Of a stretch of DNA of 64,000 bases, positions 4,347 to 64,000 are shown piece after piece. Below the pieces are notes generated by a model. That model ran no database searches. It was not told where the DNA came from and saw only the letters and a list, made by a program, of their open reading frames with translations. The position numbers and the translations under genes are program-made. The DNA is from Clostridia bacterium (lineage in GTDB: Bacteria > Bacillota > Clostridia > UMGS1840): contig JAZQKB010000015.1 of assembly GCA_045541975.1 (NCBI GenBank), forward strand, positions 27,773 to 91,772, written 5' to 3'. Positions within the stretch are counted from its first letter, which is position 1. Each line of letters opens with the position of its first letter.

Positions 4347-4423
4347 GTTTCATTGCTCCTTTTTATTGTTTTATCGTTTTTATTTTTACGTTGAATAAAA
4401 GGGGACGCCTGAGAACATAACGA

Positions 4424-8728: not shown

Positions 8729-8738
8729 ACTATCCCTC

Positions 8739-15319: not shown

Positions 15320-15388
15320 CTTTTTTTCCTCCACTGATATATTCAAGAATTTACATCACTCGTTCTTCGTACAGAAGAATCTATCGTT

Positions 15389-48072: not shown

Positions 48073-48903
48073 ATGATGAGAGACTTATTTGAAACCGTGC
48101 TGATACTCAGTGCAATTGGGTTTGCCCTGACAGCTGTTTTGTTATGCTTAAAACCCATTACTGTAAAAAAATTCTCTGCCAAATGGCAGTATTACATCTG
48201 GATTGCCGTGCTCTTGACAATGGTAATTCCTACCTACAAGCTGATTCCCAAGCAACAGGTCCAACAAATCCGCAGGATTGCTCCCATAGAAGCGCCCCGT
48301 ATTTTTACGGTTCCCTACGAACCCTCCCGGGAGCTTTTAGCACCCCTTGAGCCTACTCCCACAGCGGAACCTACCGTGACGGTATCTTATGCTGCCAAAA
48401 CCGATGTGCTGGATGTGTTGTCTATAATCTGGATTGCTGGAGGAATCGTATTTTTAACGGTGGTATTGCTAAGCTACCTCCTGTATCTTTGGCAAAAACG
48501 AAAACAGGCAGTCGCCCTGGAGGATACCCCCTTATTAATCGACGTCAAAAAGGAGCTTGGAATCAGAAGACACATCCGCGTAAGAATGTCTCCAACAGTT
48601 GGCTCCCCCATGCTGGTGGGCGTGTTCTTTCCGGTCATTTACATCCCCTGCAGGGAGCTTCCGAAGGATATGATGCGTCTTGTACTTCTTCACGAACTGA
48701 CCCATTATAAAAGAAAAGATTTAATCGTCAAATGGTTTTCCCTGTTGGTCAATGCAGTGCATTGGTTTAATCCGCTTTCCTATTTGGTCTGCGCAAACCT
48801 CAGTGATGCCTGCGAACTCTCCTGTGATGGAAAAGTCACCCGTAATATGAATGAAGAAGAACAAAAACAGTATATGAAAACAATTCTTGCATTAGTAGAA
48901 TGA
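48073..48903 (+). CDS. M56-family (BlaR1-like) membrane zinc metalloprotease lacking a penicillin-binding sensor domain
   Basis: 276 aa with TM helices. The HExxH motif is 'LHELTHYKRKD'. The protein ends shortly after the protease domain. Confidence 0.75.
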   Translation: MMRDLFETVLILSAIGFALTAVLLCLKPITVKKFSAKWQYYIWIAVLLTMVIPTYKLIPKQQVQQIRRIAPIEAPRIFTVPYEPSRELLAPLEPTPTAEPTVTVSYAAKTDVLDVLSIIWIAGGIVFLTVVLLSYLLYLWQKRKQAVALEDTPLLIDVKKELGIRRHIRVRMSPTVGSPMLVGVFFPVIYIPCRELPKDMMRLVLLHELTHYKRKDLIVKWFSLLVNAVHWFNPLSYLVCANLSDACELSCDGKVTRNMNEEEQKQYMKTILALVE

Positions 48904-50351
48904 AAGGCAGGCGAAAGATTATGATGGAACGGTTATTCACCACGAAAATGAGTGCAAACAGAAAGAAATTAGAATCCCGATTTCAAAAGATACGCACAAA
49001 AAACGGAAAGCTTTCCAAATGGATTGGCTATGCACTGTTTGGAATCATTCTGCTTGCCGTAGTTAGTGTTGGGATTGTGATTGCCGTAAACCGCAGTGAA
49101 GATTACCGCATGAGCGATACCCGTTTTTCTGAGTATTTAAACCGTCCTGTAGGTGCCATTATGGCAGAAATTGATTATTTAGATCATGAAAAGCTGGTCT
49201 TTCATTATCTGGACGGATTTTTTGTGATCAATCTGCAACCAAGAGAAGTATTACATAAAATTGATTTGGGTGCTTTAAACATTGCAGGACATACGCAAGG
49301 AGACTGCTTTACGGTATTTCAGGCAGATCAAAGGGGAAATTATGTATATCTGAAAAATGAGGGCCCCCGTGATAGGATTGGCAATTATGACAACTACATC
49401 ATCAATCTGCATACCGGCGACGTGAGCCTTGGAACAATGCCTCAGGAAACCGAGCTTTTTTCAAATTTCGCCGATACTTTTACCAAAGTGGGTAATCCCT
49501 ACGGATTTTACAGCATCCGCTGTGTGACTGAGGAAACAAAAACGCATTATCTCACTGTTTTGGAAAGCGATTTTTCCTCCCTGCAACTGGTCAGTGTTGA
49601 CCATCAGGCAGAGGATAACAGTCGGTTTACCTATCTGTTCCCCAGGTTGTATGTCAGCGATGCCAACAAAAGAAATGAAGTGATAGAAAAATCGCTGTCT
49701 GACGGAGAAGAAATCACAAAAAACAGCGGTCTTGACTGGGAAGTAAATGCAGATACCGTCCGTTCCCTGATTCATAAAATCAGCGAACTGCGACAAATGC
49801 AATATCAACAAATTCCCGACGGAAACTATGTTGTTACCATCCAGAATATTGAGAAAAACGGTGAAGTGTATCAAAAGCTGTTTATCATCAACAACTACAA
49901 CACGGAGTTGATTCTTTCCGAAAAACTGACGGATGAGGATTACTACATGGGCATCATCAATATTTTAAATTCCCCCGTCAGTGATTTGTATCACAAAACC
50001 GAAGAATTTTTGGCACAGGAATTTCACAGAGTGCATGACCCCTTGTATGATATTCAGCACTTAACCATTTCCAACTGGGAAGAACACGGAAACGAAGCAA
50101 CCTTCTGGTACAAAATGACCTTTTTATACTACAATCGTGACCCCGACAAAGCAGCCTACATTCAGGAAGCGAAGCAGAGAAGTCAAAAAGAATATGAAGT
50201 GCTGTATGAGGATTATTTAGCATTAAAAGAAGGAAATTTTCAGTTTAAAATTATCGACAACGGTACTACTCTGGAGCTATATACCAATGTGGCTCCCCAA
50301 GGCACCGAGTGGGTTCCCATCACTGTTGATGACTTTGTAATGTCTGATTGA
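48900..50351 (+). CDS. Single-pass membrane protein, paralog A (short cytoplasmic N-terminus, TM helix, ~420-aa ectodomain of unknown function)
   Basis: It has an ATGA overlap with the M56 gene. The start may instead be 48921/48924 (MMERLF). The N-terminus 'FTTKMSANRKKLESRFQKIRTKNGKLSKWIG' is followed by TM 'YALFGIILLAVVSVGIVIAV'. Confidence 0.6.
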   Translation: MKGRRKIMMERLFTTKMSANRKKLESRFQKIRTKNGKLSKWIGYALFGIILLAVVSVGIVIAVNRSEDYRMSDTRFSEYLNRPVGAIMAEIDYLDHEKLVFHYLDGFFVINLQPREVLHKIDLGALNIAGHTQGDCFTVFQADQRGNYVYLKNEGPRDRIGNYDNYIINLHTGDVSLGTMPQETELFSNFADTFTKVGNPYGFYSIRCVTEETKTHYLTVLESDFSSLQLVSVDHQAEDNSRFTYLFPRLYVSDANKRNEVIEKSLSDGEEITKNSGLDWEVNADTVRSLIHKISELRQMQYQQIPDGNYVVTIQNIEKNGEVYQKLFIINNYNTELILSEKLTDEDYYMGIINILNSPVSDLYHKTEEFLAQEFHRVHDPLYDIQHLTISNWEEHGNEATFWYKMTFLYYNRDPDKAAYIQEAKQRSQKEYEVLYEDYLALKEGNFQFKIIDNGTTLELYTNVAPQGTEWVPITVDDFVMSD

Positions 50352-50361
50352 GGTGACCGCA

Positions 50362-51993
50362 ATGTTAGAAACAATATTTACCACAAAAATGAGTGCAAAC
50401 AAAAAGAAATTAGAATCCCGATTTCAAAAGATACGCACAAAAAACGGAAAGCTTTCCAAATGGATTGGTGCTGGTCTGTTTTCCGTGGTGGTTCTGGCGA
50501 TTCTTGTAATCTCCATATATCTGGCTGTTTCCTATGCCGGAAAAGGTACTCCTGCAAAGGAACTGTATGCACTAAAAAACACCTCTCTACAGGATGCCAA
50601 GTCCATTCACAACATTGTATATACCGCCGATATTACCCCCTATCAGCTTCATTCTTCGGAGGTACGAACAGACTCCTTTGAAAAGCGACTTGCCATCAAA
50701 TTTATGGTAGATGACCGCTCTGAGCATCGGGTTTCGGATGACACTGCTCTTCGGAAGCTTTCGGCAATTCTTCTGTCTCTGGTGCCGGAGGTAGATTCCG
50801 TAAGCTGTCTACTCTTTGACCGGTATTCAGAAGATCTTAACAACTGGGAAACATGCTTTTACAGTACCTATGTTTCCAAATCCGACCTACATTCCCGAAG
50901 TGAATTTGAACTATTTACCAAAGATTATCTGAACCATGCAACCAAAAGCTTACAGACCTACGAAGAATTTTACCGTAACATTGCCTTAATCAGCTCTCAG
51001 CACGAATTAAGTGCCTATGTAAAACAAATTTATTCTTTTATCGGAAACGATTATGAAATCGTGCCAAACAGCGGACTGGGTGCGGAATTTCTGGTAGACC
51101 GTGAATTTTTGGAATCCCCGGAATGTGCCGAAATCCGCCGTTTGTTTAATATGAAACCGGAGGAATACTTAGGGCACGCTCTGCAATTAAACAAACATAC
51201 CATCCGTAATTTCAAAAATAATACCAATCAAAAACACCTGGTGCTCTGTGAGAGTACCCCGCAGGAAACGCCCATCATTGCACAGAAAATTATCGAGGAG
51301 GAACAGGCAGAGGCAATTCGTTCCCTGATAGGAACCCTGATGAAAAAAACAGCCGATCTCTATCTCCCAAATGCAGAAAATCTGACCTATACGCAGGCAC
51401 TGGCGTTGCAATATCAGGTAAACCAAGGGCATTATCCCTGGCGATTAGACCCAAAGCAAGTCATTCAAAGCTTTTTATCTGCCCAGGGAGAGCCTGAGCA
51501 GAACATCCGTTTTCCGGAGCTTGAAAGTGATTCTTTGCATTATGTAAACGGTACGATTGAATTAGAAGTCTATCAACCCATTGAGAAAGGAAAACAAGGG
51601 ATCTGGATTGTGAAAAGTTATCTGAAAAAAGAACCTCCCGTTCTAAAAGATATCAATTTTTACAGCATTAACCCACAGGACAACACCTTAGGCAACGAAC
51701 TTATAAAACGGGAGGACGGTTGGTACCAATTCCCAACCGAAGCAGGAGCATTTATCAATCTAAAAGGTGGCTCCCCTGCATCTGTAACCGCCTATTTTAC
51801 CCCCACAGGAACCAATATGGAGCCATACAAAAAGCAGGTTGGCTATGCCGAACCGCCTTTCCCGCAAGTTCCCATTTCTATCAGGCTTCGGTTTACACCG
51901 GAAGACACAACAGGGCATTTACAGTTTGTGTGTAAAGGACAGGATGGCTCAACAGTGGAATCAGAATTATTCAATGTATTCATTACAAACTAA
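50362..51993 (+). CDS. Single-pass membrane protein, paralog B (same N-terminus, DUF4825-like region in the ectodomain)
   Basis: The track ORF starts at GTG 50353. ATG 50362 has a GAGGTG RBS 6 nt upstream. 'LYALKNTSLQDAKSIHNIV..ALRKLSAILLSLVPEVDSVSCLLFD' resembles DUF4825, a domain I recall as frequently linked to M56 peptidases. Confidence 0.55.
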   Translation: MLETIFTTKMSANKKKLESRFQKIRTKNGKLSKWIGAGLFSVVVLAILVISIYLAVSYAGKGTPAKELYALKNTSLQDAKSIHNIVYTADITPYQLHSSEVRTDSFEKRLAIKFMVDDRSEHRVSDDTALRKLSAILLSLVPEVDSVSCLLFDRYSEDLNNWETCFYSTYVSKSDLHSRSEFELFTKDYLNHATKSLQTYEEFYRNIALISSQHELSAYVKQIYSFIGNDYEIVPNSGLGAEFLVDREFLESPECAEIRRLFNMKPEEYLGHALQLNKHTIRNFKNNTNQKHLVLCESTPQETPIIAQKIIEEEQAEAIRSLIGTLMKKTADLYLPNAENLTYTQALALQYQVNQGHYPWRLDPKQVIQSFLSAQGEPEQNIRFPELESDSLHYVNGTIELEVYQPIEKGKQGIWIVKSYLKKEPPVLKDINFYSINPQDNTLGNELIKREDGWYQFPTEAGAFINLKGGSPASVTAYFTPTGTNMEPYKKQVGYAEPPFPQVPISIRLRFTPEDTTGHLQFVCKGQDGSTVESELFNVFITN

Positions 51994-51995
51994 GC

Positions 51996-52030
51996 ACAAA
52001 AAAGGCAACCGATGAACGGTTGCCTTTTTT
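51996..52030. terminator. Bidirectional terminator between convergent genes
   Basis: aaaaaAAAGGCAACCG-atgaa-CGGTTGCCTTTttt. Confidence 0.8.
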
Positions 52031-52031
52031 A

Positions 52032-52181
52032 TTATACCACTTGTTTTGCCATAATGATTTCCACGGCTTTGTCGGGATACTTCTCCTTTGCCTGCTTTTT
52101 TGCTTTGGCAGGAGTATCGGCATCCACAACCAGGCGGTCAATCTTGCCGTCAACCTCGACGACAATTTCATAGGATTTCAA
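52032..52181 (-). CDS. Candidate 49-aa small protein, not in the ORF track
   Basis: TTG start at 52181, with AAGGAGG (52198..52192) 10 nt upstream. Hand translation gives MKSYEIVVEVDGKIDRLVVDADTPAKAKKQAKEKYPDKAVEIIMAKQVV*. The stop TAA (52034..52032) abuts the terminator. It begins 21 nt after the stop of the 1066-aa Hint protein. Confidence 0.45.
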   Translation of the reverse strand: MKSYEIVVEVDGKIDRLVVDADTPAKAKKQAKEKYPDKAVEIIMAKQVV

Positions 52182-52202
52182 AAGGGTTACGCCTCCTTGA
52201 TG

Positions 52203-55200
52203 CTATTTTACATACAGGTCAATCAGGCTGACAATGTAATCCCAGGTGAAAATTCCTTTTTCTACGGGGATTTTTAAGTACGCGCCATTAAAGCTGATAA
52301 ACTGTTCGTAGGTTACCAGGTCTTTAAAGTCTGCGTAAGTATATAAACCGTAGGTTTCCACATCCTTTTGGAATTTTTGGGTATCGTAACGGAGCTTTTC
52401 GCCCATTTCAATCCAGTTATAGAAATCATCCGGAGGTGCAACAGTCAGCATACCTTCTGCCAGTGCATTGGCATTTCCTGCAGAGGTTAAAGAATATGCA
52501 ACGGTGGTTTCATAGGTTGTTTCGGTTGCAGTTAAGGTTACCAGGCTGTAGCCGTCGGCATCCATTTTCACAAACTGATGACCTACGTATTCTCCCATAT
52601 TGTCTACGGTTAAGTAAACATATTTGTTCAGGTCATAATCAAACACACCGTGATCACCGATGATTCTTAAGGTGGTGCCATCGGAGAAGGTTAAGTTTGC
52701 AACCGGATAGGTATCTTCTCCGTGATTTACAAGCAGTGCAAGATTGGTTTCTTCCACTTCGCCGGTGAAGAAGTTGTAGGATAGAACGGTGTCATCCATG
52801 GTAATGTCAGAAATTGCTTTTTTGCTGCCGTTTGCCAGGGTAATCAAGGTGTCGGCAGTAAAGCAGCTGCTACCACCTGTAGCCGCCGTCAGCGTACCTG
52901 CACAGAATTTGTTGTAATCATATTCATTATCCTGGTCTTCTGCTACACTCCAGGTATGGGAGAAGGACAGGCTCTTACCATTTTTATCGGTAAACACATA
53001 AGACACAGGAACCGTTCTTGCAGTGTTTCCAGTATTTACCAGACCGCTGGAGCTTGATGCCACAAAATAGAGCTTGTTGGTGCCGTTATTATCTACCACA
53101 ACGGGCATTGCATACACTTTTTTACTGGAGTGTACCTGTCCGCCGGTTACGGTTAAGGTGAAGTCTTCATTTTCGGGAGTATAGGTCCAAACGGTATTGG
53201 TGCCGTTTTGCTGACCGAGAGTGGTGGGCGTGTAATCGGAGAGCAGAATGGTCTTATACTGGCTTTCTGCTACACTCCAATAAGTGATTTCTACGCCTTC
53301 CAAGGCAGGAGCCGCACCGTGCCAGGTGCCACCCTTGGAGGATGCCACACAAAGACCAGCTTCCCAGTTAGAAGCCGCCAGAACAGGAGCATTTTTGTCG
53401 GATTCGGTGCCGCTGACATAGAAGGGATAGGTATAGGTTACGGTTTTATCAACCGCTTCCCCGTTTTCATCATAGAAGATGTTATCGGTGACATTTAACT
53501 CATACATATGAGTACCCACGGTTACGGGAATTGTCTGGGTAGTATCCACAGTTTCGCCGTTTTGGGTTACGGTGTAGGATAAGTCTTTGCCGTATTTTGT
53601 AAGAGTCAGTTTGGAGAAATCGAAGCTATAGGCACCCTTATCTAAATTTACGGTCAGACGGTTAATCCAACCGGTTTCATTAATATATTCGTGGGTTAAC
53701 ACTTTATTTTCATCAGTTTCGGAATACACCGCAGTTGCCAAAATGTTACCGTTTGCGGTGGATTCATAGGTGGGATAGGTTGCCACTTCAGGGTCAGTTC
53801 CGTTAGCATTGGTATAGGAATATACCTTCACGGAGGTCAGATCCAGATTCTGATAGGGTACACTGTCTTTATTCACACGGTTATCGTAAATTACCGGGTC
53901 ATTCAGTTTGGCGCCCATATCCTCTACCATATAGATAAAGCCCAAGTTCAGAGAATCACGGGTAATGCCGTCTTTATAAGTAATGGGATGGATATATTCT
54001 TCCTGGCTTAACACATGGTTTACCATAGACTGTGCTTCTGCCGGAACATATACCTTATATTCTTCGTTTGCCCATGCATACTGAATCAGTTTGCCTTCTA
54101 AGGTGATGGGAGTAGCATTACCTTCGGAATCTGCCACGGTAAATAAGCTAATGCCCATCAACGTCTGGGTAGTATCGTGAACAGTTGCCTGGATTGGCTC
54201 CTGAATCAAGGTAACATCCCGTAAGGTCAGGCTGTTTGCCGCATTCAGATGAATATTGGCTGCTGCACCGCCGTATACAGTGGTGTTATCTAAAACAGTA
54301 TCTCCTGCAGTGACATACAAAGCTGCACGACCACCGGAAATGTAGGAATTGGAAATGGTACAGTCACCGGTTACCATTACTGCACTTCTGATATTGTAGT
54401 AACGGGTTTTGGTGCCGTCAATCTGAGGCTCGGTGGGGTCATCGTATTTGTTGGATTCGTATAAAATGGGATAGGGGAAATTGGGTGCGATAATCCGCAC
54501 GTTATCCAGGTTTCCGTTATTTACAGTCATAAAGGCATAGCCACGGTCTAATGCTGCCTGGTCGGAGGTAGCAGTCATGGAGAAGCCGTTACCGTAAATG
54601 GTATGACCGCCGGATACCACCTGCTGACCTAAGCCCACATTATTTAATAAAACAATGTCTCGGTCAGTAGCACTCATAGCAGCGGTGGTGTTGTATGCAT
54701 CTACAACTTCTAAAAGAAGCTGGGTAGGTTTGGTATCTTCCAAATCATCAGAAATTACAAGCTTCACAATACCGGTTCCGGTAAAGGACACGGTTCTTGC
54801 GGTCCAGTCGGTGCCTTCGCTGATGGTAGCAGACACACCGGTACCGTCAATAGGCTCTGCACTAACACTTACGTTGCCGATTTCCACATTGTCTGCAGCA
54901 GCAAACAGTTTGCCAAGTGCAACGCTATTCTGATTTCCCACACGGTAAAGGTATGTATCGGTATTTTCAAATACTGTCACAAATTTTTCAGTGAGAATGG
55001 GATCGTGACTGATCGTTGCTGCCGGAATTAAGGGACAGATGGTATCAGTATCCACCCAGCAGAACACTTTGAGATAGTCGGTATCTCCCACGGTAATATC
55101 AGCGGTGGTAACGGTTAACAAATCTCCCGTCATACCGCCATGAAATGCCATGGGTTCCATTTTTAAAAGCTTTCCGCCTTCTTCATAATGTCCAACCAGA

Positions 55201-55403
55201 ACAAAAACAGTTCCTTCCCTTGGAACTTCGGCAGATGCTTTGGCGTAAACAGTGTCTACGCCTAATAAGGTGTCTGTCACCTGGTCGGTTTCGGCATTGT
55301 AAAACACGATGCCCTGGTCATTGGCACGAACGCTCAGTACCAGTGATGAAACCAGCATGGTAACAATTGCAACAGCAAGAATGAAACTCACAATTTTTTT
55401 CAA
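52203..55403 (-). CDS. Secreted beta-helix-type surface protein with a C-terminal Hint (Hedgehog/intein-like) module and conserved tail
   Basis: 1066 aa with a TTG start. Signal peptide MKKIVSFILAVAIVTMLVSSLVLSVRA. The central ~300 aa is paralogous to the giant neighbour ('YLYRVGN.N.VA...LF', 'IVLLNN.G', 'YGNGF(S/T)MT', 'LDNVRI(I/V)AP'). The C-terminus reads 'SS/CFTADTLITLANGSKKAISDI..GDHGVFD..NALAEGMLTV' followed by a 78-aa tail. Confidence 0.8.
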   Translation of the reverse strand: MKKIVSFILAVAIVTMLVSSLVLSVRANDQGIVFYNAETDQVTDTLLGVDTVYAKASAEVPREGTVFVLVGHYEEGGKLLKMEPMAFHGGMTGDLLTVTTADITVGDTDYLKVFCWVDTDTICPLIPAATISHDPILTEKFVTVFENTDTYLYRVGNQNSVALGKLFAAADNVEIGNVSVSAEPIDGTGVSATISEGTDWTARTVSFTGTGIVKLVISDDLEDTKPTQLLLEVVDAYNTTAAMSATDRDIVLLNNVGLGQQVVSGGHTIYGNGFSMTATSDQAALDRGYAFMTVNNGNLDNVRIIAPNFPYPILYESNKYDDPTEPQIDGTKTRYYNIRSAVMVTGDCTISNSYISGGRAALYVTAGDTVLDNTTVYGGAAANIHLNAANSLTLRDVTLIQEPIQATVHDTTQTLMGISLFTVADSEGNATPITLEGKLIQYAWANEEYKVYVPAEAQSMVNHVLSQEEYIHPITYKDGITRDSLNLGFIYMVEDMGAKLNDPVIYDNRVNKDSVPYQNLDLTSVKVYSYTNANGTDPEVATYPTYESTANGNILATAVYSETDENKVLTHEYINETGWINRLTVNLDKGAYSFDFSKLTLTKYGKDLSYTVTQNGETVDTTQTIPVTVGTHMYELNVTDNIFYDENGEAVDKTVTYTYPFYVSGTESDKNAPVLAASNWEAGLCVASSKGGTWHGAAPALEGVEITYWSVAESQYKTILLSDYTPTTLGQQNGTNTVWTYTPENEDFTLTVTGGQVHSSKKVYAMPVVVDNNGTNKLYFVASSSSGLVNTGNTARTVPVSYVFTDKNGKSLSFSHTWSVAEDQDNEYDYNKFCAGTLTAATGGSSCFTADTLITLANGSKKAISDITMDDTVLSYNFFTGEVEETNLALLVNHGEDTYPVANLTFSDGTTLRIIGDHGVFDYDLNKYVYLTVDNMGEYVGHQFVKMDADGYSLVTLTATETTYETTVAYSLTSAGNANALAEGMLTVAPPDDFYNWIEMGEKLRYDTQKFQKDVETYGLYTYADFKDLVTYEQFISFNGAYLKIPVEKGIFTWDYIVSLIDLYVK

Positions 55404-55490
55404 TACGGCACGTCCTTTCCAAATTTTTTTAGAAAAAATAGTTCTCTCTAATGTCAGAAAATAATCTTCTTTATACAGTCGGTCAATTCT

Positions 55491-55520
55491 ACTGTATCAT
55501 AACAAGAGGACATTTGTCAA
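55491..55520 (-). promoter_or_regulatory. Possible promoter of the 1066-aa Hint-protein gene
   Basis: On the minus strand: TTGACA (55520..55515), an 18-nt spacer, then TGaTACAGT (extended -10-like). Confidence 0.35.
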
Positions 55521-55612
55521 GATTTTTTGATGATTTTCAGCAAATATTCGGTGTAGGGAACGACCTATGTGTCGTTCCATTTTTGTGGTGATGCCAACCT
55601 AAAAAAGATAGC

Positions 55613-55647
55613 AAAAAGCCCCGCAGGAAAACCTGCAGGGCTTTTTT
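55613..55647 (-). terminator. Rho-independent terminator of the giant gene
   Basis: The minus-strand RNA reads GCCCUGCAGG-uuuu-CCUGCGGGGC (one G-U pair) followed by UUUUU. Confidence 0.8.
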
Positions 55648-55663
55648 AGAATTAGGTTTTGGA

Positions 55664-58600
55664 TTAGTTCATATGGAGTTCTAGCAGGAAGATGATTTCA
55701 TCGAAAGTAATAAATCCTTTTCCTACAGAAACCTTAAAGATGGGAAGATTCAGACCCATAAATTGTTCATAGGTAACATAATCTTCAAAATCTTCATAAG
55801 TGTATAAGCCGTAGGTTTCGATGTCTGCCTGCATAGCAGCTTCATCATACTTCATATCTTCACCAACTGCGAAAGGCATTAAGTAGTTTTCACTGCCTTC
55901 CACCTGTCCGGGAGTTAATGCCAACATACCCTCTACAATACAGTTATGATGTTCTGCAGTCAGAACAGACCAGCTTTCGGTGTACTGTTCTTCAATGTTG
56001 TAATCAACCAATTTAGCCGTTTCGTTGCCGTTTTCGGTGTAAACCACGAAGGTATGTCCAATATAATCTGCAACATTGGTGTCACTGAGCATTACGAAAC
56101 GTTTTGCATCCACATCGTAGAAAGCGTGTCCTCCGATGGTGTTTACTTTGCTTCCATTATCGAAGTATACAGTTGTTACTAAGTAATTATCGTAACCATG
56201 GTTGTCAATAATTACTGCGGGTCTAGCAGTATATTCACCGCTTACGAAGTCCCAAACAAGCAACTGATCAGCATAGGTCAATTCGTCAACCCGTTTCTGG
56301 CCACCATCTGCTAAAGTGATTAACGTATCGGGGGTGAAACAGGTTCCGCTACTGGAGGCTTCAATCGTAACATTGGAAGCAGGCATGGTAAAGGTATAAG
56401 TACCAGCTGCGCTCTGAGACAATATGGTATTATTTGAAGCATCCTTAACGGTCAGCGTTTTGTTGTTATTCTGTGAGAAGGAAACGGTAACGCTAACAGT
56501 CTCATTATAATAAGCTGTAGTTTTATCTACGGTAACAGTTGCGTTGTTCTGCTTGGAAATAGTAATAGTATACGAAATATGTGTCCACTGTGCATATAAG
56601 GTGATATTTGCAGTGGGGGTATACGGACTTTCTATCTTAGTTCCTCCGGATGCTGCGGTGTACCAGCCATCAAAGGTGTAACCGGTTCTGTCATTCGGTG
56701 TGGGTAAGGTTAATGCAGTTCCCAGATAGGTCTGAGAGGTGGTACCGCAAGAACCGCCGTTGGTGGTTGCATCATAAGTTACCACAACAGGATCTTTCCA
56801 CTGTGCATATAAAGTGATATTTGCGGTGGGAGTATAAGTATTGCCACCGATACCAATCTTAGTACCGCCGGATGCCGCAGTGTACCAACCGTTGAAGGCA
56901 TAACCGTCACGGGTGGGTGTGGGCAAGGTTAACGTTGTGCCTTGGTAAGATGCACTTGCCGGGGTAACAGATCCGCCGTTTGCATTGTAGGTTACGGTAT
57001 ATACCGGTGACCACTGTGCATACAGGGTAATATCGCCGGTTGCCTGATAGGATGCACCTGCAGCACCAATCTTATTGCCACCCTCTGCTGCATCATACCA
57101 ACCGGTGAACCAGTAACCGTCACGGGTAGGTGTGGGTAAGGTTAATGCAGTTCCGGTGTAGTTGTCAGAGGTTCTGTCGCAAGAACCGCCGTTTGCATCA
57201 TAGAGTACGGTGCTGGGTTTGCCCCACTGTGCATATAAGGTGATATCTGCAGAGGGAGTGTAGGAATCGCCTGCGCCACCTACTCTGGTACCGCCGTTTG
57301 CTGCAGTATACCAACCGGTAAACATGTAGCTTCCGCGTTTGGGTGTGGGCAGGGTGACAGAAGTGCTTACAGAGGTTGCATATGCGGTGGTCTGTGTGCA
57401 GGTACCTTCGTTTGCATCAAAGATTACAGTCGCTTTGATGGTGGTGCCAAAGGTTCCGGTGGGAACAGAACCATTTTCGCAATTTGCAAAGGTTACAGCG
57501 CCGGATTTAATTTCCACACCGTTGTTACCGATGAAGGTATAGTTGGAAATTACCCAGGTGGTAGTAGTAGCACTGGTGGTACCGCCGTTTACATAGTAAA
57601 GAGTGTTGCCACTTGTGTTCAGCGTACCAGTATAGGTAGAACCGCCGCTTACTGCTCTTGCGGTGGTATCAACATTGATCACGCCGCCGTCAATTAATTT
57701 TACTTCAATCAGAACGTGGTTTGCACTGGTGTAACCGGTAATGGTTGCACTTGCAATCTTGTTAAAGTCGTTATCGCCGTCAAATCTTAAGTATGCGTCC
57801 TGACCGTTATAGTCATAAATTTTTAAGCCTGCCAGGAAGGGTAAGTACTGGGTCTGACCGCCTGCAAAGATGCTCTTTTTCGCATAACCCATAACCTGCT
57901 TGGAGGTATCATAGTCAAAGTAAGCATCAGGAATGCTGTTATCTTTTAAGGAAACGGTAATGGTTACATTCCAGCTATACTCTTTGGTATCGGAAACGGT
58001 AACACCGTCTTTATCGTAGAATACCGTGTCGGTTACGGTGTAGGTTACGGTATAATTTCCTGCATTGGATAAGGAAACTTTTCCGTTGGTTACAGCAACC
58101 GCATTGCCGTTTTCGTCATGACAGGTGATGCCCATGCCAAGATCCTGACCGGTATACTTAGTGATATTTACCATAGTGGAAAGATCAAATTCTTTGGTAT
58201 CGCCGGAGGGGAACATTACATTGACAACTTTATTCAGCTTGCTTTCCACATAGCAGAATTCGTCTCCACCTTCATCCGGTACCTTCTGTCCGCCTAAGTC
58301 GTCGGTGAAGTTAAACTGCGGTTCGTACCAGCTATTTTCGGTAGACTTGTCTGCATTTTGATAATCGGAATAAATCTGATCTGCAGTTGCATTTTTCAGA
58401 GAATATGCATTACCGCTGACACCCGAAATAGAAACAGTACCAAAGTCGTAAGGTAATCCGGTATTGTTGGTAATAGGCGCATCATAGGTGTTCATATAAA
58501 TCAGAGTTAAGTTGGATGCGGTTTTACCGTTTACAGTATGATTAAAGTCTTCTGCTCTTACTGCTGCATCAATAATCTTTTGTGCTGCTTCGTCAGACAC

Positions 58601-61600
58601 TGCATTCTTATCGTCTGCAGTTACCCAGTTATACTGTTTTAATTCGCCGTTTAAGACAATAGCAGGGTTATCGTTGGTTTCAGGACCAACTATGATACCT
58701 GCACCCATCATAACCTTGGTAGTATCAACAACGGTGGAGTTGGTCTGATACTGAATGGTAGTTAAATTATCCAAGGTTACAGTATGACTGCTGTTACTCT
58801 GAATCTGCATATTTGCTACCACACCGTTTTCCAAAACGGTATCTTTTACGGTTACATCACCGGTGTTTACAAAGATGTTGTTTCTGCCACCGTAGATGTA
58901 ACAGTTGGAGATGGTAGCATTGCCGGATGCTGCCACTGCAGACAACTGATAGTAGTATCTGATTTTAGTAGTATCCGAAGTATCTGTTTCGGAAGGACCG
59001 GAGGTTACAGCCTGACCGATGGAAGCACTGCTGTAATACAGATATGCATTGGGATAAATGGGTGCCACAATTCTTACGTTATCTAACGTACCGTTTTCGG
59101 ATACAGTTACAACACCCTGTTTCAGACCGTTTTTCAGATAACGTCCATCACCGGAATAGGTCATGGTGAAGCCGTTTCCGTAGAAGGTGTAATCACCGGA
59201 TACGTTTAAGGTGCTAACACCGCAGTTATTCAAAAGAACAATGTTGCCGGAAGTTGCGTGAGTTGCACCGATTGCATTGGTTGCATCCACAACTTCTAAG
59301 TATAATTCGGTGGGGATACAGTAATCGTTATCGGTAACAGTTACTTTTACCACACCGGTTCCGGTGAACGTGATGTTCTGGGTAGAAGCATCGTAGCTTC
59401 CGCCTGCTGCACTACCGTCAACTGCTTCCACAGTAACAGCCACAGTACCGATTTCGGCATCTGCTTTCGCTTTGAATAAACTGCTGAATGCAACAGTATT
59501 CTTATTACCTACACGGTAGAGATAGGATTCTGTATTCGGGAATACTAAATCAAATTTTTCTACCGGCTGTAAGTCTACCACTGTCACAGTAATCGTGGTG
59601 GGAGTACAGAAGTAGTAGTCGGTAATGGTGATGGTTGCTGCACCCAAACCTTCAAAAGCTAAAGTACCCTGTGTCCAGTCGGTAGCGTTTGCTTCGTAGG
59701 TTGCAGTAACCGTGCTGGTTTCATCTGTAGGAGATACCATTACCTGAACATTTGCACCAACAATTTCAACTTCATCCTGTGCAGCTGCTTCAAACAAGTC
59801 GCCAATGGTTACTGTGGTGCCGGTAATATAGGTTTCTTTTGCGATAGATTTGAATTTTTCAACAGAATTTGCTTCTACTCTGTCTAAAATGGTGATGCCT
59901 TCAAAATAAGTTTTTCCGTCGTTATAAATGGGAACGTTTTTCACGCCCCAGCCGGAGCCTTGAAATAACTGATTGAAAGGCAGGTAAATGTGCTGTTTGT
60001 CTTCTTTTAAGTCGGGCTTGCCGTCACCATTTTCGTCGATGCTTTCTTCATAGCCTGCATCTTCATGGTTCCAAACTGCACCGTCTACAAAATGGTAACA
60101 GGTTGCATTTTCGGTAGCATGAGTACCGTTTACTACCACATAGTTCTTACGACCGGTAGTGGGAATTGCGGTGGTTACACCGTCCACAGTAACGGTCATA
60201 TTCGCTACATCCACACTGTCTACTTCATCCAGTCTGGAGAACTGATGGTCGTGAGTGTAGGATGCGATGGAATTTACAACCATTTCACAGTAGTAATAAT
60301 TGTTCCAATCACCAAAGTGAACGGTACAATTTTTTGCGGTGATGCCGGTCATGTCAGGAACGGTATAGCCGTTTTCGTCGGTAGTGTTTGCCTGAACCGT
60401 ACCGATCATCATACCTGCATAACGGTACCAGTAGTACTGGTAGTTACCGCAAACGTCATTAAATACGTCCAGCTGTGCAGCAACGTGGCAGTTTTCAAAA
60501 GATACGCCACATTTGCTGTCGGGATAGTATCTACCCATAATACCTGCGCAGGCAACGTCATAGCTGCCCCACAGCGCAGAGATTTTGTTGGTGTTATCTA
60601 CGGTGATATTTCTAAAGATAATGGGAGTATTTTCAATGTCAGTTTTTTCTCTGGAATACCAGCCGCCGCTACCAACGATACCGCCGTTACCAATGTTGTA
60701 AACACGGGGATTACAGTTGGTAATTGCGATGTTTTCAAAAATAGCGCTTCTGCCTTCCCAGCTTTCCGCATAAGTAGCGATCACACCGGTAGTGGTGATT
60801 TCACCGTCGGATTTGAAGTTATCCACAGTTAAGTTTTTAATGGTTGCACCATAAACTTTACCAAAGATACCCATACCGTCACGGTAATACTGTTCTTCGG
60901 GGGTATACCATTCGTGGTCACCTTTCATTTCCCAGGTGTTCTGGTAAATGTTTTTAATCGTGTGACCGTTCCCGTCGAAGGTACCCATGAAAGGCTTCAT
61001 TCCACTGGTGATAGCGGTATTGGTTCTTTCGTAGGTATATTCGGAGTTATAATAACCAACGGGATAGAAAATTTTATTGGGATCATTTGCTTCTTCGCCG
61101 TCGGCAAAGTTGATATCGGAAATCAGCTTAAAATATTTCCCGTCAAAGGAATCCTGAGTGCGTCCTTCCATACCGCCAACAACGGCACTTAAATATGCCA
61201 TCTGGTCTGCATTGGCAATGATATAAGGATCACTTTCCGTACCGGTACCACCGGAAAATCCGGTAGCGATGTTACCTTCCCATCCCTGCTCGGTTTCTGC
61301 AACCACAGTGATTTCGGAGAAGGTTGCCAGTGCAACTGCAAGAGTACCGTCTGCCGGATCATAGGTGAACTGGTTATGAGCAACTAAATCTTCTTTGGTT
61401 GCCACTTCTTCCATTTTAACGGTTTCGCCGTCTTCCACATGGTATAAGCTTAAGTTCCCTTTGTTGTAACCGGGTTCGATTGCTTCGTTTACGGTAACAA
61501 TAATGGGCGTGGTGTTATAATCGGAAACGCCTTCCACGTGAACGTCCATTGCAGACAAACTTTCATGTTCGCCTGCTTCTACACCGCTTTTAGAATCTTC

Positions 61601-64000
61601 CAAAACGGAGGTAGAAAGAGCCAAGGCAGTAGTGCCTTCTTCCATGACAACGCCTGCAGGAACTTCTGCAGTTACATTGGCAGAGGTAAGAACCGTAGCT
61701 TCGGTGGTTACATTCACATCAGGGTGATATACATAGGTTCTGCCGATGGTGTAGAACTCAGTTTCGTCTTCGGGATTATAAATGCGAAGTTCTAAAGTTA
61801 CTTCTAAATCGGGATTTGCCTGTTTGAATGCATCGGTAAAGTAGATACCGCAGTCAAAATCTTTCACTTCGGTGTAGATATCGTAACAGGTCAGTTTCAA
61901 TCCGCTCTGTCCCATTAATTCTGCTGCAGTTTCCATCACACGGATAGGAGTATCTGCCTCTAAGGTTGCATCTTCAAAGGGTACGGATACCCAGTTTTCA
62001 CTCCAAGCATCATACTGACCGGAAAGATAACCGTCTGCAGTACCGTCTGCATTGATGGTTACTTCTTTGTTTACGGTTAATACATAATCTGCATACCAAT
62101 TGCCGTATTTTTCAATCTGTTCTGCAGTGGGAGTATCTGCTTTGAAGTTTAAAGCAAAATCCAAGTCAACCGGCAGAGTGGTTACATCCAGCTCAGTTAC
62201 GGTTGCAGTGGGCAGATTGCCGGGACGGTATGCATAGCTTCTGCCGATGGTGTAAAACTCAGTTTCGTCGTCAGGATTATAAATGCGAAGTTCCAGAATG
62301 ATTTCTAAGTCTTTGTTGGCTGCTAAGAACTCGTCCGTCAGACTAACACCGCAATCGAAGTCTTTTACTTCAGAGTATACGTCATAACAGGTGAGTTTTA
62401 AGCCACTCTGACCCATCAACTCTGCCGCAGTTTCCATAATTTTTACAGGTTCGTTGGCAGGTAGGGTAGCATCCTCAAAGGGTACAGATACCCAGTTTTC
62501 ACTCCAGGCATCATACTGGCCGGAGAGGAAACCGTCTGCACCGCCATTAGCATTCAGAGTGATTTCTTTGTTGGTTACCAGTACGAAATCGGCGTACCAG
62601 TTGCCATATTCTTCAATCTGTTCTGCAGTGGGAGTATCTGCTTTGAAGTTTAAAGCAAAATCCAAGTCAACCGGCAGAGTGGTTACATCCAGCTCAGTTA
62701 CGGTTGCAGTGGGCAGATTACCGGGTCTGTAGGTATAGGTTCTGCCAATTACATAAGACTCGCTTTCGTCTTCGGGATTGTAAATTCTTAATTCTAAAGT
62801 TACTTCTAAATCGGGATTTTCCTGCTTAAATGCTTCGGTAAAGAAAATACCGCAATCGAAGTCTTTCACTTCGGTGAAAATGTCATAACAGGTGAGTTTT
62901 AACCCACTCTGTCCCATTAATGCTGCTGCAGTTTCCATAACTCTGATGGGAGTATCTGCTTCTAAGGTAGCATCCTCAAAGGGTACAGATACCCAGCTAG
63001 AGCTCCAAGCGTCATACTGACCGGAGAGATAGCCGTCTGCGGTGCCGTTTGCGTTAAAGGTTACTTCTTTGTTTACGGTTAAAACATAATCTGCATACCA
63101 GTTTGCATATTTTGCAGCCTGTGCTTCCGTGATTTCGTCAACTTTGAAGTTTAATGCAAAGTCTAACTCAACCGGCAGAGTGGTTACATCCAGCTCAGTT
63201 ACGGTTGCAGTGGGCAGATCACTGGGTTTGTAGGTATAGGTTCTGCCGATGGTATAGGATTCTTCTTCATTTTCCGGATTGTAAATCTTTAATTCTAAAG
63301 TTACTTCTAAGTCCGGATTTGCTGCTTTAAATTCGTCGGTGAAGAAGATACCGCAATCAAAATCTTTTACTTCGGTGAAGATGTCATAACAGGTGAGTTT
63401 TAACCCGCTCTGTCCCATTAATGCTGCTGCAGTTTCCATCACTCTGATAGGAGTATTTGCTTCTAAGGTTGCATCTTCAAAGGGTACGGATACCCAGCTA
63501 GAGCTCCAGGCGTCATACTGACCGGAGAGATAGCCGTCTGCGGTGCCGTTTGCGTTAAAGGTTACTTCTTTGTTCACGGTTAATACATAATCTGCATACC
63601 AGTTTGCATAAACTGCAGCCTGAGCGTCGGTAATATCATCTGCTTTAAAGTTTAATGCAAAGTCTAACTCAACCGGCAGCGTAGATACGTCCAGCTCGGT
63701 TACGGTTGCGGTGGGCAGACTAACTGGTCTGTAGGTATAGGTTTCACCAATAACATAAGACTCGCTTTCGTCTTCGGGGTTGTAGATTCTTAATTCTAAG
63801 GTTACTTCTAAGTCGGGATTTGCCTGTTTAAATTCTTCGGTGAAGAAAATACCGCAATCGAAGTCTTTTACTTCGGTGAAAATGTCATAACAGGTCAGTT
63901 TTAACCCACTCTGTCCCATTAATGCTGCTGCAGTTTCCATCACTCTGATGGGAGTATCTGCTTCTAAGGTTGCATCTTCAAAGGGTACGGATACCCAGCT
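55664..64000 (-). CDS. Giant secreted surface protein (at least 2778 aa in window, 5'-truncated) with tandem repeats, beta-helix regions, Listeria-Bacteroides repeats and a C-terminal Hint module plus conserved tail
   Basis: The frame stays open from 63943 to 64000 (SWVSVPFEDATLEADTPIR then VMETAA..), so the true start is outside the window. 'GGTGTESDPYIIANADQMAYL' and 'GTFDGNGHTIKNI' are typical entries into beta-helix/GLUG-type domains. The C-terminus reads 'SSSGT/CFTPDTLITLADGGQKRVDEL..GGHAFYD..HHNCIVEGMLAL' followed by an 83-aa tail. Confidence 0.85.
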   Translation of the reverse strand, partial: SWVSVPFEDATLEADTPIRVMETAAALMGQSGLKLTCYDIFTEVKDFDCGIFFTEEFKQANPDLEVTLELRIYNPEDESESYVIGETYTYRPVSLPTATVTELDVSTLPVELDFALNFKADDITDAQAAVYANWYADYVLTVNKEVTFNANGTADGYLSGQYDAWSSSWVSVPFEDATLEANTPIRVMETAAALMGQSGLKLTCYDIFTEVKDFDCGIFFTDEFKAANPDLEVTLELKIYNPENEEESYTIGRTYTYKPSDLPTATVTELDVTTLPVELDFALNFKVDEITEAQAAKYANWYADYVLTVNKEVTFNANGTADGYLSGQYDAWSSSWVSVPFEDATLEADTPIRVMETAAALMGQSGLKLTCYDIFTEVKDFDCGIFFTEAFKQENPDLEVTLELRIYNPEDESESYVIGRTYTYRPGNLPTATVTELDVTTLPVDLDFALNFKADTPTAEQIEEYGNWYADFVLVTNKEITLNANGGADGFLSGQYDAWSENWVSVPFEDATLPANEPVKIMETAAELMGQSGLKLTCYDVYSEVKDFDCGVSLTDEFLAANKDLEIILELRIYNPDDETEFYTIGRSYAYRPGNLPTATVTELDVTTLPVDLDFALNFKADTPTAEQIEKYGNWYADYVLTVNKEVTINADGTADGYLSGQYDAWSENWVSVPFEDATLEADTPIRVMETAAELMGQSGLKLTCYDIYTEVKDFDCGIYFTDAFKQANPDLEVTLELRIYNPEDETEFYTIGRTYVYHPDVNVTTEATVLTSANVTAEVPAGVVMEEGTTALALSTSVLEDSKSGVEAGEHESLSAMDVHVEGVSDYNTTPIIVTVNEAIEPGYNKGNLSLYHVEDGETVKMEEVATKEDLVAHNQFTYDPADGTLAVALATFSEITVVAETEQGWEGNIATGFSGGTGTESDPYIIANADQMAYLSAVVGGMEGRTQDSFDGKYFKLISDINFADGEEANDPNKIFYPVGYYNSEYTYERTNTAITSGMKPFMGTFDGNGHTIKNIYQNTWEMKGDHEWYTPEEQYYRDGMGIFGKVYGATIKNLTVDNFKSDGEITTTGVIATYAESWEGRSAIFENIAITNCNPRVYNIGNGGIVGSGGWYSREKTDIENTPIIFRNITVDNTNKISALWGSYDVACAGIMGRYYPDSKCGVSFENCHVAAQLDVFNDVCGNYQYYWYRYAGMMIGTVQANTTDENGYTVPDMTGITAKNCTVHFGDWNNYYYCEMVVNSIASYTHDHQFSRLDEVDSVDVANMTVTVDGVTTAIPTTGRKNYVVVNGTHATENATCYHFVDGAVWNHEDAGYEESIDENGDGKPDLKEDKQHIYLPFNQLFQGSGWGVKNVPIYNDGKTYFEGITILDRVEANSVEKFKSIAKETYITGTTVTIGDLFEAAAQDEVEIVGANVQVMVSPTDETSTVTATYEANATDWTQGTLAFEGLGAATITITDYYFCTPTTITVTVVDLQPVEKFDLVFPNTESYLYRVGNKNTVAFSSLFKAKADAEIGTVAVTVEAVDGSAAGGSYDASTQNITFTGTGVVKVTVTDNDYCIPTELYLEVVDATNAIGATHATSGNIVLLNNCGVSTLNVSGDYTFYGNGFTMTYSGDGRYLKNGLKQGVVTVSENGTLDNVRIVAPIYPNAYLYYSSASIGQAVTSGPSETDTSDTTKIRYYYQLSAVAASGNATISNCYIYGGRNNIFVNTGDVTVKDTVLENGVVANMQIQSNSSHTVTLDNLTTIQYQTNSTVVDTTKVMMGAGIIVGPETNDNPAIVLNGELKQYNWVTADDKNAVSDEAAQKIIDAAVRAEDFNHTVNGKTASNLTLIYMNTYDAPITNNTGLPYDFGTVSISGVSGNAYSLKNATADQIYSDYQNADKSTENSWYEPQFNFTDDLGGQKVPDEGGDEFCYVESKLNKVVNVMFPSGDTKEFDLSTMVNITKYTGQDLGMGITCHDENGNAVAVTNGKVSLSNAGNYTVTYTVTDTVFYDKDGVTVSDTKEYSWNVTITVSLKDNSIPDAYFDYDTSKQVMGYAKKSIFAGGQTQYLPFLAGLKIYDYNGQDAYLRFDGDNDFNKIASATITGYTSANHVLIEVKLIDGGVINVDTTARAVSGGSTYTGTLNTSGNTLYYVNGGTTSATTTTWVISNYTFIGNNGVEIKSGAVTFANCENGSVPTGTFGTTIKATVIFDANEGTCTQTTAYATSVSTSVTLPTPKRGSYMFTGWYTAANGGTRVGGAGDSYTPSADITLYAQWGKPSTVLYDANGGSCDRTSDNYTGTALTLPTPTRDGYWFTGWYDAAEGGNKIGAAGASYQATGDITLYAQWSPVYTVTYNANGGSVTPASASYQGTTLTLPTPTRDGYAFNGWYTAASGGTKIGIGGNTYTPTANITLYAQWKDPVVVTYDATTNGGSCGTTSQTYLGTALTLPTPNDRTGYTFDGWYTAASGGTKIESPYTPTANITLYAQWTHISYTITISKQNNATVTVDKTTAYYNETVSVTVSFSQNNNKTLTVKDASNNTILSQSAAGTYTFTMPASNVTIEASSSGTCFTPDTLITLADGGQKRVDELTYADQLLVWDFVSGEYTARPAVIIDNHGYDNYLVTTVYFDNGSKVNTIGGHAFYDVDAKRFVMLSDTNVADYIGHTFVVYTENGNETAKLVDYNIEEQYTESWSVLTAEHHNCIVEGMLALTPGQVEGSENYLMPFAVGEDMKYDEAAMQADIETYGLYTYEDFEDYVTYEQFMGLNLPIFKVSVGKGFITFDEIIFLLELHMN
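56582..57432 (-). repeat. Four ~70-aa Listeria-Bacteroides (Flg_new-type) repeats within the giant protein
   Basis: The pattern '..(Y/F)DANGG.C....Y.GT.LTLPTPTR.GY.F.GWYTAA.GGTKIG..G..YTPT..ITLYAQW' occurs four times. The DNA motif ccactgtgcatata recurs with a ~210-bp period. Confidence 0.75.
61726..64000 (-). repeat. Tandem 501-bp (167-aa) repeats, at least 4.5 units, continuing past the window edge
   Basis: The unit start 'METAA(A/E)LMGQSGLKLTCYD' recurs with its first codon at 63940, 63439, 62938, 62437 and 61936, exactly 501 nt apart. Units are highly similar at the protein and DNA level. Confidence 0.9.

Follow-up and report, generated by a model that had tools for sequence, protein, structure and literature searches.

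Two paralogous clostridial proteins end in a Hint domain and a conserved helical tail, a putative autoprocessing unit of Hedgehog-like layout

The 64-kb window analysed here (64,000 nucleotides of contig JAZQKB010000015.1, assembly GCA_045541975.1, Clostridia bacterium) carries, in its positions 52032-64000, two minus-strand genes that we named g1 and g2. Both encode large proteins that finish with a Hint domain followed by a short tail domain, a combination hereafter called the cassette. A preliminary description, made from the letters of the window alone, had proposed two paralogous giant secreted beta-helix proteins, in which a Hedgehog-like Hint module would release its upstream passenger or attach it covalently. 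The analysis reported here points to the last ~220 residues of g1 and g2 as one autonomous autoprocessing machine, made of a Hint domain and its obligate tail and laid out like the Hog region of Hedgehog proteins. We give this reading a probability of about 0.55. The features of the locus are collected in Table 1.

Table 1. Features of the g1-g2 locus (positions of the 64-kb window; aa, amino acids; nt, nucleotides; ORF, open reading frame)
Feature	Position	Strand	Basis
g1, complete gene, 1066 aa, TTG start: signal peptide, passenger, Hint, tail	52203..55403	-	ORF list
g2, open at the window end, >2778 aa visible, N-terminus beyond the window	55664..>64000	-	ORF open to base 64000
g1 Sec-type signal peptide, MKKIVSFILAVAIVTMLVSSLVLSVRA cut before ND, without lipobox Cys	55323..55403	-	read from sequence
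g1 passenger core, common to g2	53994..54728	-	jackhmmer census
g1 Hint domain, aa 847-989, ends GMLT-VA without His-Asn	52437..52865	-	
g1 tail domain, aa 990-1066, acidic, aromatic-rich, four predicted helices	52206..52436	-	AlphaFold models
g2 Hint domain, Cys codon 56339-56341; NHG, GGH, GH.F and N..EGMLAL blocks present	55913..56341	-	
g2 tail domain, 82 aa	55667..55912	-	
g2 Listeria-Bacteroides (Flg_new) repeats, four, just upstream of the Hint	56582..57430	-	PF09479, E 2.3e-50
g2 copy of the shared beta-helix-like passenger core	58544..59314	-	BLASTP against g1
g2 tandem 167-aa (501-nt) repeats, at least 5, running past the window end	61733..64000	-	repeat spacing of 501 nt
Intrinsic terminator 3' of g2, 15-bp stem, then T run	55613..55646	-	
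Promoter-like site upstream of g1, TTGACA-18-TACAGT with TG; consensus match only	55491..55520	-	
Intrinsic terminator 3' of g1, 16-bp stem	51996..52032	-	

The coordinates and the minus strand previously claimed for the two genes agree with the ORF list, and the Cys codons lie exactly where they had been placed (TGC at 52863-52865 in g1, residue 847; TGT in g2). From this codon to the stop there are 220 residues in g1 and 225 in g2. The motifs already pointed out were all found in this region, namely CFTADTLITLANG in g1 and CFTPDTLITLADG in g2, then IIGDHGVFD and TIGGHAFYD, then NALAEGMLTV and HHNCIVEGMLAL, and finally the conserved tail. The proposed paralogy of the two genes also holds: BLASTP aligns their passenger cores with 35% identity over 562 aa (E 5e-65), and their C-terminal Hint-tail regions share 33% identity over 278 aa (E 2e-45). 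The closest relative of the window is the Clostridia metagenome-assembled genome (MAG) JAZNNT01, which is syntenic with ~87% nucleotide identity. Orthologues of g1, 1067 aa long and 85% identical in the C-terminal unit, were found in two Clostridia MAGs (L001 and L002), while an orthologue of g2 (L009) is likewise broken off by the end of its contig. No database record of the g1 protein itself was found, whether L or M was taken as its first residue. The tandem repeats of g2 are 75-84% identical at the DNA level and have no Pfam match; as their period of 501 nt exceeds the Tandem Repeats Finder limit of 500, the array was found by a repeat-spacing search. The intrinsic terminators of the two genes are both strong. 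That of g1 accounts for the start of the described region at 52032, and the genes beyond it are convergent with g1.

The 143 residues that begin with the Cys had been assigned to the Hint superfamily, and this assignment is borne out by three approaches. A family profile built from 26 relatives and compared with the PDB sequences matched the bacterial intein-like (BIL) domain BUBL BIL2 of Tetrahymena (6tmm/6y75; E 2.5e-6) over the entire domain and Drosophila Hedgehog with E 2.6e-5 and 1.6e-4. Modelled with AlphaFold, the C-terminal 234 aa of g1 (predicted local distance difference test score, pLDDT, 89.9; predicted template-modelling score 0.84) present an all-beta domain and, after it, four helices. 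In a Foldseek search with this model, BIL2 was the best match (E 2.9e-10, template-modelling score 0.80), and DnaB mini-inteins, Hedgehog (1at0/6tyy; E 2-4e-8) and a BIL domain of C. thermocellum (E 2e-7) were also matched; the target-normalised template-modelling scores for BIL2, the DnaB inteins and Hedgehog were 0.75-0.85. Single-sequence Pfam and NCBIfam scans of g1 and g2 returned PF01079 Hint, Intein_splicing, Hom_end_hint and TIGR01445 with E 1e-3 to 1e-5. PF01079 is also the most frequent Pfam Hint model among full-length relatives, 31 of 103 being matched at E<=1e-3. Judging from these profiles and models, the first 143 residues of the unit form a true Hint domain and belong to the Hint superfamily.

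The tail that follows has in g1 the motif D..YGLYTY..F..Y.TYEQF...YLK..V.KG. AlphaFold predicts a four-helix domain for the g1 tail both in context and alone (pLDDT 88.5 when alone). The domain is acidic and rich in aromatic residues (median isoelectric point 4.1, net charge -10, 21% aromatic), and no hydrophobic run of more than 7 residues was found in it; a membrane anchor was considered for the tail and rejected on account of its isoelectric point, its charge and the lack of such a run. The tail profile matched no PDB sequence, Hedgehog 6td6_B included. With the tail model, Foldseek found no relative in PDB (best E 7.9) and no match in BFVD, and the tail matched nothing in Pfam, up to E<=10, or in NCBIfam.

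Out of 1.84 billion representatives, a profile of the tail alone retrieved 2193 representative clusters at E<=1e-3, of which 1814 reach E<=1e-10, the clusters being counted at 50% identity. In almost all of these clusters the tail is the extreme C-terminus, in proteins of 400 to 3900 aa. Among 187 retrieved proteins, 182 have the Hint directly upstream of the tail and the other 5 are fragments of <130 aa. The reverse search, with a profile of the Hint alone, gave 84 relatives, 68 with the tail and the remainder truncated; no relative with another C-terminus appeared. In 63 of 64 loci, 220-239 aa separate the first Cys (Cys1) from the stop. The tail is the better conserved of the two domains, with a mean pairwise identity of 54% (minimum 25%) versus 44% for the Hint, and their divergences are correlated (r = 0.67). 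Residue conservation was read from an alignment of 211 non-identical Hint-tail units. About 20 polar or aromatic residues of the tail are near-invariant in this alignment, with Y160, D161, D168, Y172, G173, L174, Y175, Y177, F180, K198, K203 and G204 among them. In four rare members (P0070, P0107, P0131 and P0182) the tail is not terminal and is followed by a Pro/Glu-rich linker; P0131 and P0182 have a further domain after this linker, so that cleavage would leave a larger Hint-tail-X fragment.

By this distribution, the tail is an obligate and previously undescribed accessory domain of this Hint, with a predicted helical fold. Three features would make it a part of the machine: its conservation exceeds that of the catalytic domain, it does not depend on the passenger, and it is never separated from this Hint. 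The confident model of the two domains together and their correlated divergence also speak for this. A full-text search of the literature found no description of a Hint-tail family, and in the source databases the proteins are only named "Hint domain-containing protein" or "hypothetical protein". The absence of any described function, already pointed out for this architecture, is thus confirmed by these generic names and by the lack of Pfam, NCBIfam and PDB matches to the tail.

The residues expected for Hint catalysis are largely kept in the 211 units. Cys1 (C847 in g1) is found in 210 of them and the block-B His72 (H918 in g1) in all 211, and the D-G of block A and the N..G.L of block G are retained, block G being recognisable as N133 ... 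G138-M-L-T/S141. With a mean identity of ~44%, this near-absolute retention of Cys1 and His72 points to selection for catalysis. Residue -1 is a small one in 50 of 64 loci (Ser 29, Gly 15, Thr 6), usually within a Ser/Gly-rich linker. The hairpin tip of g1 carries N893-H894. When Drosophila Hh-C (sequence confirmed against 1at0) was aligned with hmmalign, its general base D46 fell on N/D47, beside H48; position 48, which is H in 162 units, D in 23 and E in 9, lies at the same hairpin tip as Hedgehog D46. With a loop alignment that is uncertain by one residue, it is suggestive only that N/D47-H/D/E48 stand in or beside the general-base column. Among the Foldseek matches of the g1 model, 6tyy is a solved Hedgehog D46H mutant, from a study whose title, as cited in PMC7906309, begins "General Base Swap Preserves Activity".

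At the other end of the domain, the loss of the terminal His-Asn reported in the preliminary description is confirmed, and the +1 nucleophile is absent too. The columns that hold His-Asn in BIL2 are occupied in the family alignment by V/L/M and A/T/P, then Pro. With neither element present, the Hint of the g1/g2 family can perform no splicing and no Asn cyclisation, and N-terminal cleavage is what it leaves possible.

We then considered the passengers, surveying N-termini in 114 full-length members and Pfam content in 103. A hydrophobic N-terminal segment is present in 102 of 114 members versus 3 of 114 for an internal control window, and the members without an export signal begin inside known passenger domains. 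The protein g2 is probably exported as well, as its relatives are, its own N-terminus lying beyond the window. In agreement with the preliminary description, no SLH domain, LPXTG motif or lipobox was found in g1 or in the visible part of g2, and the Pfam survey detected an SLH domain, an LPXTG anchor, PT-HINT (PF07591) or a toxin domain in none of the 103 members. What this survey did detect is diverse, with Flg_new repeats (26 members), the prepilin N_methyl motif (15), SipW/TasA-type signals (11), dockerin (5) and, in single members, a subtilase, BspA-type leucine-rich repeats (BspA-LRR), a SASA esterase and an alpha/beta hydrolase. The SipW/TasA-type N-terminal signal (..GTTFAWFTD..) was seen at loci L013, L016, L028, L033, L040, L043, L053, L058, L059, L077 and others. 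A passenger core common to g1 and g2 is present in 120 of 253 family proteins (jackhmmer). It matches PF13229 Beta_helix with E 0.0025 in g1 and in 4 of 18 relatives (best 6e-7), and its profile gave no match among PDB sequences. This ~250-aa core may be a right-handed beta-helix segment, a suggestion that the PF13229 matches support weakly. The earlier wording of giant beta-helix proteins was therefore overstated, since the weak PF13229 support concerns the ~250-aa core only and no PDB sequence was matched.

The scan of one genome per GTDB species gave 380 confirmed stretches with the cassette, and the locus analyses were made on the best 79 of these 380. All of the best 79 loci come from MAGs of animal gut and rumen. 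Their hosts belong to the Clostridia (Oscillospiraceae, Acutalibacteraceae, Faecousia, Christensenellaceae, Lachnospiraceae) and to Bacilli-type lineages ("Bacillales UBA743", Acholeplasmatales UBA11505). Two contigs with the cassette are binned to Bacteroidota (L020, Bacteroidales MAG, 5.3 kb; L076, Alistipes MAG, 3.2 kb); as these contigs are short and the family is otherwise confined to Bacillota, they are likely mis-binned. We clustered all ORFs of the 79 loci and the window, and found no conserved partner or immunity gene. The only recurrent neighbours in the 79 loci are SipW-like peptidases, TasA-like proteins and tandem cassette paralogues. Genes for SipW-like signal peptidases adjoin 9 loci (e.g. 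L077:664-1500) and TasA-like genes adjoin 4-5, while the cassette-bearing paralogues form tandem arrays of 2-6.

Outside these MAGs, the complete genome of Acholeplasma laidlawii (CP126461.2, L080:2772-8756) has an ORF for a Flg_new passenger of 1700 aa and, in frame with it, one for a Hint-tail protein of 251 aa (WP_284544738.1, annotated as hypothetical), the two being parted by a single TAA. An intact protein of 1246 aa (P0272, from ENA data) falls in the same 90% cluster as the A. laidlawii Hint-tail, and an Acholeplasmatales MAG carries an intact cassette gene of 1524 aa. Acholeplasma has neither a cell wall nor peptidoglycan. The cassette, with all its conserved residues, also ends a ~780-aa protein in six IMG/VR viral contigs (L081-L086). 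This phage protein lacks a signal peptide and is for the most part alpha-helical (e.g. L082:3354-5681, L085:2609-4990), and its N-terminal part has no PHROG or Pfam match. The gene comes directly after those for the terminase large subunit (phrog_2, E 5.8e-27) and the portal (phrog_156, E 7.6e-35), and the slot after the portal is the place of MuF/gp7-type head proteins (PMC5576092). From this position, the cassette would also work in a cytoplasmic virion-assembly setting. In L082, the ~5 kb downstream of the Hint-tail gene (5700-10675) contain no ORF of more than 130 aa with code 11; stop-codon recoding, non-coding DNA or an assembly problem could account for this ORF-poor stretch. The phyletic survey that the preliminary description had proposed thus finds the Hint-tail unit widespread, in gut Firmicutes, Acholeplasma and some phages.

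From these data we propose the following mechanism. The passenger protein would be exported by the Sec route and would then fold. Cys1 would attack the bond that links it to the preceding small residue (Ser/Gly), in an N-to-S acyl shift aided by His72 and the Hint active site, leaving the passenger as a thioester on Cys1; this step is drawn from the conserved residues and from established Hint chemistry (PMC7765530, PMC2362128). Lacking His-Asn and a +1 nucleophile, the domain can perform no splicing and no Asn-driven C-terminal cleavage. An incoming nucleophile would finally resolve the thioester, and the passenger would leave the Hint-tail fragment with a new C-terminus. A cut between S846 and C847 of g1 would give a passenger ending in ...TAATGGSS and a Hint-tail fragment starting with CFTADTLITLANGSK. 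The tail would act at this last step, where it would select, activate or gate the agent that resolves the thioester, and would not be cargo. It may recruit a nucleophile other than water, gate hydrolysis or only stabilise the Hint. Within this model, water, which would release the passenger and might do so upon a ligand trigger, is slightly favoured over another molecule, which would modify or ligate its C-terminus. The autonomy of the machine is supported by the absence of a partner gene kept across the 79 loci and by the presence of the cassette on unrelated passengers, one of them from phage. All known hosts are anaerobes of reducing habitats, which would suit extracellular Cys chemistry.

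The more specific idea that the cassette is the bacterial and phage counterpart of Hedgehog cholesteroylation is possible but doubtful. The tail would in this case recruit a specific non-water nucleophile, onto which the Hint thioester would transfer the C-terminus of the passenger, for an enzyme-free covalent anchoring or a protein-protein ligation. Candidate acceptors are molecules of the envelope or the host, and amines carried by a partner protein or by the next subunit. It could mean a sortase-independent attachment or polymerisation of surface proteins in anaerobic gut Firmicutes, and a cross-linking of head proteins in phages. Some circumstantial features fit such a transfer: a tail that is acidic and rich in Tyr could be suited to an amine or a cationic ligand, no other anchor is present, the paralogues stand in tandem arrays, and some N-termini are pilin-like or TasA-like. 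The wall or membrane acceptor suggested earlier is weakened by the presence of the cassette on a signal-less phage protein and in Acholeplasma and by a tail that is acidic, soluble and not lipid-like. Peptidoglycan was considered as a universal acceptor and rejected as a general one, given the cassette in Acholeplasma and phage. Since the phage context is one of virion assembly, a cell-envelope polymer cannot be the universal second substrate.

Several points weigh against an autonomous autoprocessing machine. All single-sequence Hint matches of g1 and g2 are under the curated cut-offs; of the searches proposed in the preliminary description, Foldseek gave significant matches and the single-sequence Pfam scans sub-threshold ones, the family profile used in addition being significant. 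The claim of a T..H block is also only half right: the His is invariant, but the position three residues before it holds Ile/Val/Leu and not Thr in the 211 units. These units have no conserved Cys near position 143 and hence no counterpart of Hedgehog C143. The sets behind the conservation figures were gathered by means of profiles of the tail or of the Hint, a selection that favours conserved members. Moreover, the confident stand-alone fold of the tail could equally be that of an independent module.

This last point belongs to a different explanation, in which the Hint cuts by hydrolysis and the tail has a non-chemical task (oligomerisation, folding nucleus, transient retention or docking) before being discarded once assembly is over, as a helper that removes itself. 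We regard it as unlikely. It would suit the very different settings of the cassette (exported proteins, a phage head-module protein, Acholeplasma) and a tail that folds alone. It would also suit the beta-helix-like core of many passengers, as Peptidase_S74, the self-cleaving C-terminal intramolecular chaperone of phage tailspikes that is found on fibrous or beta-helical phage and bacterial proteins, serves that class. BIL domains, for their part, cleave without accessory domains (PMC7765530). A helper should however vary with the passenger, whereas one tail family serves passengers of the beta-helix, Flg_new, leucine-rich repeat, subtilase and alpha-helical phage types, surpasses the Hint in conservation and is never found without this Hint (182/187, plus fragments). 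Retention on a cell-envelope polymer, in particular, does not fit the phage context. A Hint kept as a non-catalytic structural or binding domain, or one freeing only the tail by an atypical C-terminal cleavage as in B-type BIL domains, is most improbable. The extreme conservation of Cys1 and His72 speaks against it, as does Hint_2 (PF13403), which we take to be the model of BIL type B and which matches only 1 of 103 members, and the phage versions weakly. The missing block-B Thr and terminal Asn are nonetheless in its favour, the loss of the C-terminal motif fits BIL type B, and B-type BIL domains do show atypical C-terminal cleavage (PMC7765530).

That the tail is a toxin or another effector, freed on contact by a pre-toxin HINT peptidase and delivered by phages in a MuF-type form, is very unlikely, even though a delivery scaffold followed by HINT and a C-terminal domain is the classical architecture of polymorphic toxins. 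HINT is indeed among the processing proteases of toxins delivered by Sec (type II secretion system) and MuF routes (PMC3482391), and the phage gene directly after the portal occupies the position of muf genes (PMC5576092). But the tail shows no polymorphism: only one family occurs, never swapped, with a minimum pairwise identity of 25% and a divergence correlated with that of the Hint. No immunity-like gene is kept downstream in the 79 loci; a terminator and then convergent genes lie behind g1, and the next gene of the phage locus L085 encodes 950 aa. PT-HINT and toxin domains are absent from the 103 members, and the tail, a 75-aa acidic helical domain, has no PDB or Pfam relative. An autonomous Hint and tail acting together on the passenger thus remains the reading that we prefer.

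The window also contains other large surface proteins, which had all been said to use SLH. This was overstated, as SLH was found in 3 of the 5 large window proteins scanned. At 669-18037, on the minus strand, lies a large polysaccharide-lyase and carbohydrate-binding cluster (heparinase II/III, PL8 lyase, CBM96, F5/8 type C), with SLH in three proteins and no SLH matched in a 1225-aa protein (669-4346) or in the PL8 lyase (15389-18037). The plus-strand genes convergent with g1 (48073-51993) form an operon of a BlaR1-type M56 peptidase and two membrane proteins of 483 and 546 aa. These two proteins have in common a 57-aa N-terminal cytoplasmic and transmembrane segment with 68% identity, and their ectodomains are unrelated. 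The M56 peptidase operon is also present in a related MAG (L003).

To our knowledge, Hint domains are the only protein modules that make a thioester from a peptide bond unaided. Natural uses of this thioester include splicing in inteins and the lipidation of a morphogen in Hedgehog. What is new here is a putative Hint autoprocessing domain with an undescribed obligate accessory domain and a very large distribution (~2,200 clusters), which stands at the end of the dominant surface proteins of uncultured gut and rumen Clostridia as well as of a phage packaging-module protein. A cassette that only cuts would give a major class of gut-bacterial surface proteins a new way to mature or to be shed. 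If transfer is true, it would represent a new chemistry by which proteins are anchored or ligated without an enzyme outside eukaryotes, would have implications for how Hog domains arose and might provide a tool for protein engineering. Either way, the tail merits its own family definition.

Among known systems, Peptidase_S74 is, like the cassette, a C-terminal module of fibrous or beta-helical proteins that cleaves itself, but it has an unrelated fold and uses a Ser-Lys dyad with no thioester. Inteins differ from the cassette Hint by their C-terminal (His-)Asn and +1 Cys/Ser/Thr, the +1 residue being here a Pro, and by the host protein that resumes after them, whereas only a 75-aa tail, terminal in nearly all members, follows this Hint. 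Judged from the alignment, in which the His-Asn is missing, the cassette Hint is neither an intein nor an A-type BIL domain. BIL domains (types A and B, and BUBL BIL2, 6tmm/6y75) nevertheless give its best profile and structure match. They share with it non-conserved secreted or surface bacterial hosts, with the clostridial cellulosomal ScaO as an example, and N-terminal cleavage by BIL domains is known (PMC7765530, PMC4582956). A-type BIL domains and BIL2 end however in His-Asn (PMC7765530), and BIL domains are internal, in hypervariable regions, without a dedicated conserved tail.

Pre-toxin HINT domains, including those of MuF phage toxins, also lie near the C-terminus of large exported or phage proteins, with one more domain after them (PMC3482391, PMC5576092). 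In the cassette, by contrast, the domain after the Hint is always of one kind, evolves together with the Hint and is accompanied by no immunity gene. The C-terminal Hint-like domains of proteobacteria and myxobacteria (Buerglin 2008, PMC2362128) resemble it by a secreted N-terminal region and by the absence of a known function. By their description only, these domains differ from the cassette in belonging to other phyla and in having motifs A and B with a weak motif-F-like patch, whereas the cassette has a full fold, a recognisable block G and an added tail.

The Hedgehog-like layout put forward in the preliminary description stands, with an exported passenger, a Cys-Hint and a short conserved terminal region, as in the Hint plus sterol- or adduct-recognition region (SRR/ARR) of Hog proteins (PMC2362128). 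The likeness extends to a signal-peptide passenger, a small residue before Cys1 and no terminal Asn (PMC2362128, PMC7906309), to an equal Hint length with a His at position 72 in both, to a helical region of 60-80 aa that ends the protein and, as far as the uncertain loop alignment allows, to a His/Asp at or beside the general-base column. On the other side, Hog is eukaryotic and the cassette bacterial and phage-borne. Hedgehog Thr69 and Cys143 are absent from the cassette, for which no adduct is known. Its tail has no similarity with the SRR, the profile match to full-length Hedgehog (6td6_B) stopping inside the Hint. Where the SRR is a membrane-associated helix-loop-helix, the tail of the cassette is predicted to be an acidic, soluble four-helix domain.

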